From Tepidiformaceae bacterium (GTDB lineage Bacteria; Chloroflexota; Dehalococcoidia; Tepidiformales; Tepidiformaceae): a DNA stretch of 64,000 nucleotides. Made by a program: the position numbers and the translations under genes. Where the stretch lies: contig OZ252025.1 of assembly GCA_965247675.1 (NCBI GenBank), forward strand, positions 2,525,153-2,589,152, read 5' to 3'. The notes under the pieces were generated by a model. That model was not told the DNA's origin. It searched no databases and saw nothing but the letters and a program-made list of their open reading frames with translations. Shown in pieces: positions 948 through 45,893 of this stretch; positions within the stretch are counted from its first letter, which is position 1, and every line of letters begins with the position of its first letter.

Positions 948-1478
948 ATGGAAACACGCTTGTATTTCTGTATGCTTGGAGAAAACATACGAACAGTTCC
1001 GCGCGGGTTCGCGGGCGCGATCCGGGGGCCGCAACTGGAACAACCACAGGATCGGGAGTCGATATGGAGCGTCAGAAGGCAGACGAGGGAGACCTACTTT
1101 GTCGTCTTCATCGCCCTGTTCTTCCTGGGCATGGGGCTCGCGTCCCTGCGCGCCTTCCACGACGGCGGCACCCTGCTCGACACGACACTTGCGGTATGGT
1201 CGGATGCAGCGCCGCTGACCATCACGGCAGCGGCGGCCGCACTGGCGCTGACTGAGATCGGGAGGAGCCTCATGGTTATCGCACGACGGCTGGAAGAGGG
1301 TCTGGAGCGGCTCCGCGAACGACGCCGGGCTGAAGGCCGGGCCGAGGGGCGCGTCGAAGGCAGGGCCGAAGGGCGCGCCGAAGTGAACCGCGCATGGCGG
1401 GCGTGGAACGGAAGACGGCTCGAAGCAGAGGCGCGCGGAGAGCCGTTCACCGAGCCTCCTCCGAAGTACTCGGACTAG
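948..1478 (+). CDS. Hypothetical two-TM membrane protein with a charged C-terminal (AEGR)n / RAWRAW..PFTEPPP module
   Basis: ORF track. Two hydrophobic helices (YFVVFIALFFLGMGLASL, LTITAAAAALALTEIG). The C-terminal ~55 aa are paralogous to the N-terminus of the next gene. Start uncertain (948 or 972). Confidence 0.5.
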   Translation: METRLYFCMLGENIRTVPRGFAGAIRGPQLEQPQDRESIWSVRRQTRETYFVVFIALFFLGMGLASLRAFHDGGTLLDTTLAVWSDAAPLTITAAAAALALTEIGRSLMVIARRLEEGLERLRERRRAEGRAEGRVEGRAEGRAEVNRAWRAWNGRRLEAEARGEPFTEPPPKYSD

Positions 1479-23743: not shown

Positions 23744-23820
23744 TGGTCGGGGTGCCCGGATTCGAACCGGGGACCTCTTCGTCCCGAACGAAGCACTCTA
23801 CCTGGCTGAGCTACACCCCG
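23744..23820 (-). tRNA. tRNA-Pro (anticodon CGG), CCA encoded
   Basis: Reverse complement reads CGGGGUGUAGCUCAGCCAGGUAGAGUGCUUCGUUCGGGACGAAGAGGUCCCCGGUUCGAAUCCGGGCACCCCGACCA. Cloverleaf with a 7-bp acceptor stem, anticodon loop UUCGGGA and T-loop GGUUCGAAUCC. Confidence 0.93.
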
Positions 23821-23922
23821 AGGAACTCACAGAATAGCGCCGCCGCCCCCAACCGTCAGCGCCCCCTTCGCGCCCGCCTCTCCTACACTACGCCCGCGGG
23901 CCAGCAGCCCCGGGAGGACGCC

Positions 23923-24300
23923 ATGAGCGAACGCGCAGCAGACGAGCGCCTGGAAAGCACGAGCGAGCGCGCAGCAGACGAGCGCCTGGAGAACACGAGC
24001 GAGCGCGCAGCAGACGAGCGCGGAAACACGAGCGAGCGCGCAGCAGACGAGCGCCTGGAGAACACGAGCGAGCGCGCAGCAGACGAGCGCGGAAACACGA
24101 GCGAGCGCGCAGCAGACGAGCGCCTGGAGAACACGAGCGAGCGCGCAGCAGACGAGCGCGGAAACACGAGCGAGCGCGCAGCAGACGAGCGCCTGGAGAA
24201 CACGAGCGAGCGCGCAGCAGACGAGCGCGGAAACACGAGCGAGCGCGCAGCAGACGAGCGCGGAAACACGAGCGAGCGCGCAGCAGACGAGCGCGGAAAC
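23923..24300 (+). repeat. 11-unit tandem repeat of 36- and 33-bp units, in frame with the downstream SDR
   Basis: Units are ACGAGCGAGCGCGCAGCAGACGAGCGC followed by CTGGAGAAC or GGAAAC, encoding TSERAADERLEN / TSERAADERGN. Order is LES, LEN, GN, LEN, GN, LEN, GN, LEN, GN, GN, GN. There are no stops. Confidence 0.95.
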
Positions 24301-25077
24301 ATGAGCAAGCGCTTCGAAGGCAAAGTCGCCGTCATCACCGGCGCGGCCGGCGGCATCGGCCGCGCCACCGCCGTGCGGTTGGCGCGGGAGGGCGGGCGCG
24401 TCGTCGCCGTCGACCTGCCGGGGAGCGACCTCGCCGGCGCCGTCGCGGCGGTCGAGGAGGCCGGGAGCGAGGCCCTCGCCGTCCCCGCCGATGTGACCAG
24501 CTGGGCCGACCACGAGCGCTACGTGAGCGAGGCCGTCGAGCGCTTCGGCGGCATCGACGCGTTCTTCAACAACGCCGGCATCGAGGGCGTGGTCACCCCC
24601 CTCACGGACTACCCCGAGGACATCTTCGACAAGGTCATCGATGTGAACGTGAAGGGCGTCTGGCTCGGCCTGAAGGCCGTTGGCCCGGCGATGCGCGCGC
24701 GGGGGGGCGGCGCCATCGTCAACACCGCCTCGACGGCCGGCCTGGGGGGCACGCCCCACCTGGTCGCCTACGGGGCGAGCAAACACGCCGTCATCGGCAT
24801 GACGCGCACGGCCGCGCTCGAGTTCGCGCGCGACAACATCCGCGTGAACGCGATCTGCCCGGCGCCCATCGAAACGCGCATGATGCGCTCCATCGAGCGC
24901 GGCGGCGATCCCGACGACCCGGAGGGGCGCTACCGCGAGATCGCCGCCGGTCTGCCCCTGCGCCGCTACGGCCAACCCCACGAGGTCGCCGCCCTCACCG
25001 CCTTCCTGTTGAGCGACGAAGCGTCCTTCATGACCGGCGCCTACTACCAGGTCGACGGAGGCTCGAAGGCCCGCTAG
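23923..25077 (+). CDS. SDR-family oxidoreductase (FabG-like) with a possible 126-aa SERAADER-repeat N-terminal extension
   Basis: SDR motifs TGAAGGIGRA, NNAG and YGASKHAV. A GGAGGA SD lies 4 nt before ATG 23923. The catalytic domain proper starts at ATG 24301 (MSKRFEGKVAVITG), which has no SD. The ORF-track start at 23752 overlaps the tRNA and is spurious. Confidence 0.8.
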   Translation: MSERAADERLESTSERAADERLENTSERAADERGNTSERAADERLENTSERAADERGNTSERAADERLENTSERAADERGNTSERAADERLENTSERAADERGNTSERAADERGNTSERAADERGNMSKRFEGKVAVITGAAGGIGRATAVRLAREGGRVVAVDLPGSDLAGAVAAVEEAGSEALAVPADVTSWADHERYVSEAVERFGGIDAFFNNAGIEGVVTPLTDYPEDIFDKVIDVNVKGVWLGLKAVGPAMRARGGGAIVNTASTAGLGGTPHLVAYGASKHAVIGMTRTAALEFARDNIRVNAICPAPIETRMMRSIERGGDPDDPEGRYREIAAGLPLRRYGQPHEVAALTAFLLSDEASFMTGAYYQVDGGSKAR

Positions 25078-25084
25078 CGGGCGG

Positions 25085-27628
25085 CTACTCCGCCCCGTCC
25101 TCGAAGGTGATCTTCCAGATCACGTTGTCGCCAATATCCGTGACGAGCAGGGCGCCGGCGGCGGTAGCGACGATGCCCTGCGGCTTGCCCAACCCCTCGG
25201 CAACAACCGAGAGGACCCCGTCGCGAGTGACCCGAACAACCCTGCCATAGTCCTGGTCGGCGACGAAGAGGGCGCCATCGTGGCCGACCGCTATTCCGGC
25301 GATAGAGGGCGAGAGCGCGCCACCGTAAGGGTTTCGGGGGGTCCTGAGCACGGTTGAGACGAACCCGTTGCCATCAATAGCGCGGATGGGGTTCCAGCGC
25401 TCAGTGAAGAAGATGTTGCCTTCGCCGTCGACAGCGATACCCTCGGGAGAGAAGAACAGCGCCCTGTCGCCCGGACCGTCCACACTCCCCACCCATGCCG
25501 GCCTTTTTTCGGGTGAAGGAACGAACCTTCCACCTGCGACTGTCGAGACTTCCCCATCGGGGGAGAGCAGGCGCACCAGGCTATTGCCTCGTTCGGCAAT
25601 CAACAGATTCCCTTCGTGGTCGAATGCCAGCGCGGCAGGATCGCGGAACCGCGCCTCGGCGGCCAGGCCATCCCGGTAACCACCCCATTGGCCCTCCGCT
25701 GCCAGGGATCCGCCTCCCGCGACCGTCGTGACCGCACAGTCCGGCCCGATCCGACGAATGCGATTCGCGCGTGAGTCAGCGAGGTAGATAGAGCCGTCCT
25801 CGGCGACGGCAACGCCCTGCGGCCGCGCGAACTGCGCCTCGTCGCACGGCCCGTCGCGAGAGCCCTCTCCCTGGCCGCCGGCAATCGTCGTGACGGTGCC
25901 GTCCGGGGCGATACGGCGGATGGCGTGGTTCCCCGAATCGGCGACGATGACGTTGCCGTCGGTGTCAAGCGCCATTGCCCATGGCTGGTCGAATAGCGCC
26001 TCGCGGGAAGGGCCGTCCCTGAACCTCGGCTCTCCCTCGACCTTGGGCCCGGCCTTGCCGGCGAAGATCGAGACAGTGACGCCCTGCATTCGTGGAATGC
26101 CGAGGTCTCCGGCCAACCGAAGGCCTGGCGTACCCAGCCTGTTTCGTCCCAGGGTTATGCGGCGAATGACGCCATTGCCTTCGTCGGCCACCACAAGAGA
26201 GCCATCGTCCATGATCGCGATCCCGCCCGGGCGGTCGAACGCAGCCCCGTCGAGCGGGCCGTCTGCGTACGCACGATCTCCCGTGCCCGCTACCGCGCGC
26301 AGCTCCCCATCACTCGTCAGCCTCACCAGTTGGTGGCGCCCGGTGTTGGCAATATAGATGACACCATCACTCGTGACGGCGAGCCCCCGTGGATGCCCGA
26401 GCGTTAGCCCCGAGACCTGGTCAGTTTCCCGAAAGAGGGTGGACACCAGGCCGTCGGCCGTGACAGTGCGCACGGCGATGCCAGGGCCGGCTAAAGAATC
26501 GGTCCCTTCGACGACGTAGATGGTGCCACTGGAGTCGATTGCGATGGCGAGGATCTCAAAGAACCGCGCCCGTCCCGCAGGACCGTCGCGATAGCCAAGA
26601 CGAGAACTGCCTGCAAAGGTCGAGACCCACCCCGCCGGAGAAACGCGCCTGATCCGCTGATAGTCCTCCGCGACATAGAGGTCCCCGTACTGGTCGATCA
26701 CGATGCCGTGAGGAAAGCTGAATCTCGCTTCCTCCGCGGGACCATCTCGAAAGTCCCCCCACGCGGCCGCGTCATTTGAGAGGCCGGCAATGGGGCCCCC
26801 GCCAGCTACGGTCGTAACCATCCCATCGGGCGCGATTTTGCGGATGCGATGGGCATCCCTGTCGGCCACGTAGATCGAGCCGTCGGGAGCAATGGCCACG
26901 TCCTCCGGGCCAGCGAATTGCGCAGTGGCAGCGGGTCCGTCGCGCACTCCCTCCCCATTGCCGCCCGCGATCGTCGTCACCGTGCCATCCGGCAGGATGC
27001 GCCGGATGGCATGGTTCTCGCTGTCCGCCACGACCACGCTCCCGTCGCGGTCGCCCTCGATCCCGAGGCCGAAGAAGGACCGACCGAAGAGGGCCTCCTC
27101 GCCCTGCCCATCCTCATACCCGCGCAAATCCGGATGCCCCGCGAGCGTGGTGACCCTGGCCTCCTGCAGGGGAACGCCGAGGCTGATGTCTCCGAAGCGC
27201 CACTGCCTGTCGAAGCTGAGGCCCTCATCCAGTGGTAGCCGCACGGTCCCGAGCGTGTCCCACTCGCCCAGCGAATCGCGCGCGCTGATGTAGATGTTCT
27301 GGTCGTCCCGTACGTCCTGCCAGACCCGCACCTCGACTATCAGCGGCGAGGACCGGTTCGGGAGCCTGATATCAACGGAGATGTCCCCATAGCGGTACCA
27401 GCCGCGGGGACTGAATCCATCGTCGAGCGCCAGGGGGATTCTCCCCAGCGTCTGCCACAAGCCGTCCGCCGGGCGGGCGCCGATGTGGATCTCGCGGCCG
27501 TCCTCCACGCTCTGCCAGACCCGCACCTCCACCCGTACCGTCGCCTCACCTTGCGCCGCACCCGTCGCCACAACCGCCAGGCCGAGCACCGCCGCCAACG
27601 CCACCGCCACCAAGGTCAATCTGCGCAT
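25085..27628 (-). CDS. Secreted NHL-repeat beta-propeller protein, paralog 1
   Basis: Signal peptide MRRLTLVAVALAAVLGLAVVATGAAQG. Two copies of a ~58-aa module (VRVEVRVWQ...YRYGDISVD). More than 12 NHL-type repeats (HAIRRI.PDGTVTTIAGG..G.RDGP...AQF..P.GVA...DGS.YVAD). Confidence 0.85.
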   Translation of the reverse strand: MRRLTLVAVALAAVLGLAVVATGAAQGEATVRVEVRVWQSVEDGREIHIGARPADGLWQTLGRIPLALDDGFSPRGWYRYGDISVDIRLPNRSSPLIVEVRVWQDVRDDQNIYISARDSLGEWDTLGTVRLPLDEGLSFDRQWRFGDISLGVPLQEARVTTLAGHPDLRGYEDGQGEEALFGRSFFGLGIEGDRDGSVVVADSENHAIRRILPDGTVTTIAGGNGEGVRDGPAATAQFAGPEDVAIAPDGSIYVADRDAHRIRKIAPDGMVTTVAGGGPIAGLSNDAAAWGDFRDGPAEEARFSFPHGIVIDQYGDLYVAEDYQRIRRVSPAGWVSTFAGSSRLGYRDGPAGRARFFEILAIAIDSSGTIYVVEGTDSLAGPGIAVRTVTADGLVSTLFRETDQVSGLTLGHPRGLAVTSDGVIYIANTGRHQLVRLTSDGELRAVAGTGDRAYADGPLDGAAFDRPGGIAIMDDGSLVVADEGNGVIRRITLGRNRLGTPGLRLAGDLGIPRMQGVTVSIFAGKAGPKVEGEPRFRDGPSREALFDQPWAMALDTDGNVIVADSGNHAIRRIAPDGTVTTIAGGQGEGSRDGPCDEAQFARPQGVAVAEDGSIYLADSRANRIRRIGPDCAVTTVAGGGSLAAEGQWGGYRDGLAAEARFRDPAALAFDHEGNLLIAERGNSLVRLLSPDGEVSTVAGGRFVPSPEKRPAWVGSVDGPGDRALFFSPEGIAVDGEGNIFFTERWNPIRAIDGNGFVSTVLRTPRNPYGGALSPSIAGIAVGHDGALFVADQDYGRVVRVTRDGVLSVVAEGLGKPQGIVATAAGALLVTDIGDNVIWKITFEDGAE

Positions 27629-45759: not shown

Positions 45760-45893
45760 GCATCGCGAGCGCGCAGCAGTCGAGCGCAGACCTTAAAGCC
45801 CACCGCTCTCCTCCCCCCTCAGGCACGCATCGCGAGCGCGCAGCAGTCGCGCGCGGAGAACCTCGCGCGGCGCTCTCCTCCGGTACACTCTCC
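45760..45893 (+). repeat. Two tandem ~67-bp units, each containing the GCGAGCGCGCAGCAGNCGNGCGC motif also amplified at 23923-24300
   Basis: GCATCGCGAGCGCGCAGCAGTCG starts at 45760 and again at 45827. The second unit continues ..GCGCGGAGAAC, matching the 36-bp SDR repeat unit. It ends at the TACACT -10 (45884-45889). Confidence 0.75.

Follow-up and report, generated by a model that had tools for sequence, protein, structure and literature searches.

An in-frame array of eleven repeat units at the start of an SDR gene in Tepidiformaceae, a probable expanded member of a dispersed MIRU-like minisatellite family

The window analysed here, a stretch of 64,000 nucleotides, belongs to a 2.88-Mb contig of a Tepidiformaceae (Chloroflexota, Dehalococcoidia) MAG and contains an SDR gene on the forward strand. 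The open frame of this gene runs from the ATG at 23923 through the stop codon at 25075-25077, and its first 378 bp are a tandem array that directly precedes the catalytic domain (Table 1). Pfam adh_short_C2 matched residues 140-380 (E=5.7e-66), the NCBIfam profile NF005559 (glucose 1-dehydrogenase subfamily) scored 254.7 bits, above its cut-off of 215, and the NCBIfam SDR profiles begin exactly at the internal methionine encoded at 24301. Judged by its Rossmann TGxxxGxG, NNAG and Ser-Tyr-Lys motifs and the full-domain profile match, the enzyme is an intact classical SDR. The gene call in the public record is the 384-aa form. The convergent neighbour of the SDR gene (window 25085-27628, minus strand) encodes an 847-aa NHL-repeat beta-propeller protein (Pfam NHL, E=3e-53). 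ORFs read from the minus strand over the array were dismissed as shadow frames of the kind usual in high-GC DNA, lying opposite an SDR gene with strong support.

The tRNA-Pro gene upstream is divergent from the SDR gene and separated from it by 102 bp, so the SDR promoter must sit in this gap. The same tRNA was found upstream of the SDR gene in all 28 species representatives of the genus, seen as in-frame read-through of the tRNA. A sigma-70 consensus scan upstream of the SDR gene found no promoter, and the CTCTCCTACACTACGCC block with the candidate -10 box is kept in 11 of 12 aligned genus genomes, reading TACACT in nine and TAGACT in two. A genus-conserved block, TCTCCTACACTACGCC (window 23879-23895), resembles the 3' end of the REP-like units described below (GCGCTCTCCTA/C...), and on this resemblance it is a possibility that REP-like units carry or mimic a -10-like TACACT promoter element.

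Table 1. Features of the SDR locus and two related repeat units, in window coordinates
Feature	Position	Strand	Sequence or basis
tRNA-Pro(CGG)	23744..23820	-	ARAGORN; Rfam tRNA 65.4 bits
Candidate -10 box TACACT	23884..23889	+	within the conserved CTCTCCTACACTACGCC block; proposed from conservation
Shine-Dalgarno (SD) GGGAGGA	23912..23918	+	4 nt 5' of ATG 23923
Array	23923..24300	+	unit = (A[TC]G)AGCGA(A/G)CGCGCAGCAGACGAGCGC, then CTGGA(A/G)A(G/A)C or GGAAAC
Ancestral SDR start codon, now internal (ATGAGCAAGCGCTTC)	24301..24303	+	sequence and alignment
SDR catalytic domain	24301..25077, stop included	+	motifs TGAAGGIG, NNAG, S...YGASK
Two REP-like intergenic units	45764..45854 (45764-45787, 45831-45854)	+	core CGCGAGCGCGCAGCAGTCG(A/C)GCGC

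The original prediction, made from the sequence alone, described 11 units of 36 and 33 bp over 378 bp, and this was borne out by dissection into units of 36, 36, 33, 36, 33, 36, 33, 36, 33, 33 and 33 bp (five of 36 bp and six of 33 bp) and by TRF, which gave a period of 33 with 11.3 copies and 92% matches. The 69-bp higher-order repeat that had been proposed was recovered as well (TRF period 69, 5.6 copies, 97% matches, score 707). The 25-nt core occurs 11 times in the array, against 0 copies expected from 100 dinucleotide-preserving shuffles. The units are ordered as A, then B C four times, then C C, and encode the peptides MSERAADERLES (once), TSERAADERLEN (four times) and TSERAADERGN (six times). 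Units 2, 4, 6 and 8 are mutually identical, as are units 3, 5, 7, 9, 10 and 11; because the internal units are identical, the expansion is probably very recent.

The statement that every unit length is a multiple of three and that no stop codon interrupts the array is also true, but the absence of stops carries little information. T is absent from the 33-bp unit and occurs once in the 36-bp unit and six times in the entire array, and with so little T stop codons are almost impossible in any sense frame, so their absence is nearly automatic. The informative points on the frame are the multiple-of-three unit lengths, the conserved upstream SD and ATG, and the comparative data. The unit is purine-rich, and the RNA of the array is less structured than all 100 of 100 shuffles (z=+6.1), in keeping with a sequence that could occupy a translation start without blocking initiation.

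The 3' end of the 16S rRNA of this genome is GGATCACCTCCTTTCT, with the canonical CCUCCU, and is complementary to the GGGAGGA ahead of 23923; in the alignment, this SD and the context of its ATG are kept genus-wide. Ahead of ATG 24301 the only candidate is the weak SD-like GCGGAAAC, and the claim that the only good SD precedes 23923, in frame, therefore holds. From these sequence features, the 126-aa E/R/A/D-rich tail would be translated in this genome. A short isoform from ATG 24301 may also be made, since the internal ATG is retained here and in the closest species representative.

SDR orthologues were compared in 28 species representatives of the genus, including this genome, and for each the distance was taken between the conserved SD-ATG and the codon that aligns with the window's internal ATG. 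This distance was 0 nt in five species, 12 nt in four, 15 nt in three, 33 nt in two, 36 nt in seven, 51 nt in three, 72, 87 and 108 nt in one species each, and 378 nt in this genome; this corresponds to 11 units here and to between none and about three in the other 27 species, in a sample in which all genomes are MAGs, the relatives are phylogenetically non-independent, and several are fragmented short-read assemblies whose arrays may be collapsed. Whether orthologous SDRs carry the extension had been put forward as a check, and they do so in graded form, from 0 to 108 nt in the 27 other species. The frame between the SD-ATG and the RFEGK motif is kept in all 28 orthologues, most of which have no internal ATG, the codon having mutated in most relatives to ATT, ACG, CCG or ACT. 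As the homologous internal ATG has decayed in most relatives, the upstream ATG is the start there and the units are translated. Sister species differ at the SDR locus in six of nine pairs.

SDR orthologues without the extension begin ATGAGCGAGCG(G/C)TTC, and the empty form reads GGAGGAcaacATGAGCGAGCGGTTCGAC. Empty and filled sites can be aligned as ATGAGCGAGCGGTTC and ATGAGCGAGCG...GGAAAC-ATGAGCGAGCGCTTC, respectively. In the closest species representative, at 95% identity, the sequence is ATGAGCGAGCGCGCAGCAGTCGAGCGGGGAAAC-ATGAGCGAGCGCTTC, in which a single unit of 33 nt separates two copies of the native ATGAGCGAGCG start; the proposed seeding of the array at the start codon is thereby supported. 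The 90%-identity protein cluster of this SDR has 29 members of 262-384 aa, and the listed members are all in frame. The two members nearest the window, on independent contigs, have catalytic domains 98.0% and 97.2% identical to it and carry 7 and 3 units; both share the lineage-specific SERAADER and MSKRF variants with the window, and the 7-unit relative also keeps the internal ATG. With 7, 3 and 11 units at a domain identity of at least 97%, the copy number changes fast, and the hypervariability expected by the original prediction is thus found between close relatives, within this cluster as well as among the 27 other species. A phase-variable contingency locus was considered and rejected, as the units are 33 or 36 bp long and all 28 orthologues and the listed cluster members are in frame.

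The array unit is a member of a dispersed, genus-wide repeat family and not a local invention. The core of the family is ATGAGCGAGCGCG(A/C)AGCAG(T/A)CGAGCG. A search of this genome with the array itself turned up related arrays and single units at other places. A 20-nt core gave 32 matches when as many as 2 mismatches were allowed, compared with none for its reversed control, representing about 15 real loci, and a 26-nt ATG-led core was found in 21 of the 28 genus genomes, again with 0 matches for the reversed control. The core is essentially confined to the genus among 301 Dehalococcoidia genomes, and exact copies among about 185,000 species came only from Tepidiformaceae-type MAGs. Family copies are co-oriented with the flanking genes and are located at gene starts (SDR, pdxS), at ATGA stop/start overlaps (Rrf2-cysK, cysS-OsmC-like) and downstream of proA. 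Rfam (E<=1) over five family loci returned no known RNA family besides tRNA. The dispersed distribution and the coupled mini-ORFs at operon junctions make a MIRU-like origin of the array much likelier than a purpose-built protein domain.

At pdxS, 12 species begin ATGAGCGAG-AACGGA (MSENGA), the ancestral start, and 11 species have a 36-nt unit at this position (MSEREAVERLEN-IGE-NGA); in most of these filled species the earlier ATGAGCGAG now reads ATAGGCGAG, ATCGGCGAG or GTCGGCGAG. Remnants of partial deletions are seen in three species, and in some species additional 46-bp units that contain a stop lie upstream. The starts of the SDR and pdxS genes themselves have only stop-free units with a multiple-of-three length. 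A tree of three host genes (FastTree), on which the sister pairs were compared, was rooted arbitrarily on the most divergent clade, and this clade is empty at both SDR and pdxS.

The Rrf2(CymR-like)-cysK junction is empty in nine species, reading CAGATATGACC, in which the Rrf2 stop overlaps the cysK start (ATGA). In 13 species it is filled, with spacings of 43, 88, 133, 178, 223, 268 and 313 nt that correspond to 1-7 units of 45 nt. The filled site has the form CAGATATGA-[47 + 45n nt]-ATGACC; each end carries a regenerated ATGA, and the cysK ATG is preceded by GGAGGAAC or GGGGGAAT, which is SD-like. This genome has seven units at the junction, forming a repeat-only ORF of 104 aa, and sister species differ there in five of eight pairs. 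The empty cysS-OsmC-like site, TTCCGATGAGCGAGGGC, is likewise an ATGA overlap, and its downstream gene natively starts ATGAGCGAG. Filled cysS sites contain 1, 2, 3 or 6 units of 46-47 nt (0-6 overall) and keep the 5' ATGA; each unit is a mini-ORF, MSEREAVERTSGAS-stop, with the next ATG 1 nt further on (TGA-n-ATG). Downstream of proA, a GTGA or ATGA at the end of the repeat-only ORF overlaps the start of the gene that follows; this genome has 2.3 units, with the stop overlapping a GTG start, and the closest relative has an ORF of 101 aa. A leader-peptide regulon linking cysS, cysK, the CymR-like regulator and pdxS was considered and rejected, as the same junctions are free of units in sister species.

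The family comprises two classes, the ATG-led units at gene starts and junctions, and REP-like intergenic units of about 65 bp with the same core. The REP-like class has a GAGCGC...GCGCTC inverted repeat, and the ATG-led units have no hairpin. The REP-like units (about 61-67 bp) follow the pattern ...CTCAGGCGGGCAT-CGCGAGCGCGCAGCAGTCGAGCGC-AGAnnnn-GGCGCTCTCCTC, are often in tandem and often adjoin tRNA genes. Besides the two in the window, further REP-like units are located on this genome's contig at 178592, 183506, 186748, 265624, 267025, 2058552 and 2486876-2487023. An intermediate 30-bp form, ATGAGCGAGCGCGCAGCAGTCGAGCGCAGA, occurs three times in the relative genome G043 (L053).

Most ATG-led loci of this genome lie within about 140 kb (2.43-2.57 Mb of the contig, on which the window spans 2525153-2589152), namely pdxS at 2434260, proA at 2452575, cysS at 2459971, a further locus at 2471275 and SDR at 2549078. 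The clustering of the orthologous loci is similar in G024 and G043, and it may reflect synteny or local spread. Tandem arrays rich in GAGCG/AAGCAGTCGA, with periods of 56, 57, 40 and 33 bp, were observed on the same contig at 788836-789103, 2694637-2694817, 2322834-2322939 and 1033308-1033459, respectively; they are situated at the borders of genes, one of them a plsX-like gene with the array upstream, and are probably more divergent members of the same family. In a Dehalococcoidia MAG with a marine-type title (CB27_Tmax.119, CAUYXJ010000091.1, about 1053-1250, minus strand), an array of 35-36-bp core units lies just past the end of a gene, and each unit ends GGTGAGATT and so contains a stop.

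The structure of the tail was modelled with AF2 from the single sequence, which gave one helix over residues 3-130 (pLDDT about 80-91) and a poorly modelled SDR domain. Single-sequence AF2 models over-predict helices for charged repeats. The tail may tentatively be described as helix-prone or disordered, and the original prediction of a single long helix or a disordered tail is compatible with the model.

Taking these data together, we consider it probable that the array is a greatly expanded copy, kept in frame, of an interspersed minisatellite that is specific to the genus and works in the manner of the mycobacterial MIRUs. The unit consists of its own ATG, a core of 24-26 nt and a variable tail of 7-20 nt, and lodges at start codons. 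At operon junctions, a unit becomes a small ORF that is translationally coupled to its neighbours. In genes that natively begin ATGAGCGAG (SDR, pdxS), the unit is 33 or 36 nt long and stop-free; the conserved SD would now drive initiation at the unit's ATG, and the enzyme would gain 11-12 residues per unit. Copy number would then drift through slipped-strand events or unequal recombination; in this genome, the 69-bp dimer would have been amplified about four times and the 33-bp unit about twice more thereafter. New sites may be reached by microhomology-mediated template switching at ATGA or ATGAGCGAG. The E/R/A/D-rich tail is most likely a tolerated, neutral passenger.

A different reading takes the repeat, MSER(E/A)A(V/D)ER..., as a selected protein module on PdxS and the SDR that would act as a helical spacer, as a tag for targeting or assembly, or as a signal for solubility or degradation. 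It could account for the same peptide heading two unrelated enzymes in many species, always in frame, and for the helix modelled over the tail. However, the identity among copies is at the DNA level, and the family also includes stand-alone, stop-containing mini-ORFs and intergenic arrays of 45-57 bp. Presence and absence flip between sister species, partial deletions are tolerated, and the unit tails vary freely (LEN, PEN, PGN, GN, LDD, HED). Residues 1-130 gave nothing at E<=1e-3 against 5.8 billion proteins, the repeat has no matches outside the SDR cluster, and in Pfam its one match, to RDM3_C, lay below the cut-off. The synonymous-site test on the pdxS core, in species picked for having the core, was not significant (1 of 7 codons synonymously variable, compared with about 50% in the gene body, P~0.06). 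We regard a selected module as improbable. A further proposal, that the array is mainly a leader, translated or not, with the active enzyme made from ATG 24301 and copy number tuning expression in the style of a contingency locus, also seems unlikely to us. The retention of ATG 24301 here, in the closest species representative and in the 7-unit relative would suit a leader, as would the unusually unstructured array RNA and the SD-like ends of the junction-type units before the host ATG. Against it, no stop lies between 23923 and the SDR domain, so ribosomes starting from the strong conserved SD make the fusion, and GCGGAAAC is all that precedes 24301; most relatives have lost the internal ATG with the frame kept, and copy changes cannot toggle the frame because all unit lengths are multiples of three.

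The 11 copies could also be an assembly or polishing artefact of a MAG with an estimated contamination of 8.7%, the true array being much shorter. No second contig of the same strain was found in two metagenome-contig scans, with the internal unit junction and the array/SDR junction (0 matches each), or in a contig look-up for the 384-aa product. The size of the contig nevertheless indicates that this is probably a long-read assembly, and reads of that kind are much longer than 378 bp; the irregular order of the units is not a simple run, and further loci of the family have several copies both here and in other complete assemblies. Independently assembled SDR relatives contain arrays of the same kind with 7, 4 and 3 units, and multi-unit arrays in independent assemblies make an artefact unlikely. 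We consider an artefact very improbable.

Returning to the MIRU-like minisatellite, we give an even chance to a stronger form of it, in which the family is an actively spreading mini-element that targets start codons and ATGA stop/start overlaps, represents the MIRU lifestyle arising independently a second time, in a distant phylum, and can convert between two forms; one contains a stop and inserts a coupled mini-ORF, the other lacks a stop, takes over the host's start codon and builds new N-terminal protein sequence. If this is true, the clean empty and filled sites in dozens of complete genomes would make the insertion mechanism directly tractable. The same junctions are empty in some species and hold 1-7 units in others, which is unusually clear comparative evidence, and they form a natural series in which to test how insertions at start codons are buffered by translational coupling. 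The family shows how repeat instability creates new N-terminal protein sequence on housekeeping enzymes (PdxS, SDR), and provides a ready set of VNTR markers for an uncultured genus of soil Chloroflexota. For annotators it is also a warning that the long 'extensions' on SDR and pdxS are real coding sequence and not mis-called starts.

Several known systems resemble parts of this picture. The array shares with ER-K single alpha-helix (SAH) sequences and coding-region VNTRs an in-frame minisatellite that alters protein length, a composition rich in E, R, A and D, and a long predicted helix. In contrast to them, it is attached to a cytoplasmic housekeeping-type SDR and not to a surface or motor protein, and its G-N-T-S every 11-12 residues would interrupt a true SAH, which is a stable, isolated long helix with E and R/K in an i,i+4 pattern; the helix here comes from a single-sequence model only. 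REP/BIME elements are palindromic units mobilised by RAYT (Y1) transposases. The second class of the present family, about 65-bp intergenic units with an inverted repeat that are often near tRNA genes, is similar to REP, whereas the start-codon position of the ATG-led units is not a REP property, and these units have no hairpin. The Y1/RAYT transposase domain PF01797 was not found in this genome, while control genomes were positive; on this absence, and on an array RNA less structured than the shuffles, mobilisation of the REP/RAYT type was rejected. Rickettsia palindromic elements (RPEs) are dispersed in-frame inserts in unrelated metabolic genes that leave the host protein intact; they are about 150 bp long, palindromic, usually single-copy and located inside ORFs (PMC10969869). 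The array units are likewise in-frame inserts that add a conserved peptide and leave the host protein intact, but compared with the palindromes of about 100-150 bp they are only 33-36 bp, non-palindromic, in tandem and confined to the extreme N-terminus. An RPE-like insert was accordingly rejected on size and palindromy, the in-frame insertion being the shared property.

The closest match is the MIRU. MIRUs are used worldwide for strain typing, and no explanation is known to us of their origin, their movement or their choice of start codons. As recounted from Supply et al. 1997 in PMC12548453 and PMC3184786, MIRUs are short units in variable tandem arrays that are dispersed and inserted at start codons. 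Their internal ORF is coupled to the host gene at -4, and a filled site is set apart from an empty one by a short direct repeat (PMC12548453, PMC3184786). In the present family, tandem copy number varies (SDR 0-11, cysK 0-7, cysS 0-6), and one consensus is dispersed over unrelated loci, at start codons and intercistronic junctions in the orientation of the flanking genes. The -4 overlaps of ORFs are found at loci other than SDR (ATGA at both ends of Rrf2-cysK, ATGA at the cysS end, GTGA downstream of proA), and empty and filled orthologous sites with a short direct repeat are found at cysK, cysS and SDR. The SDR copy itself differs in that it is not intergenic and has no stop overlapping the host start, that is, it lacks the defining MIRU feature and is fused in frame. 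The units are also 33-57 bp compared with about 40-100 bp for MIRUs, the host phylum is Chloroflexota (Tepidiformaceae), and the likeness described here is one of design. By this analogy the family would work like a MIRU, with no claim to membership of MIRU sensu stricto (Mycobacterium). The design is already known and no new principle is involved; what is added is the extra stop-free, multiple-of-three form, which replaces the start codon and fuses to the SDR or pdxS protein, so that takeover of a start codon into N-terminal protein sequence is the additional outcome.
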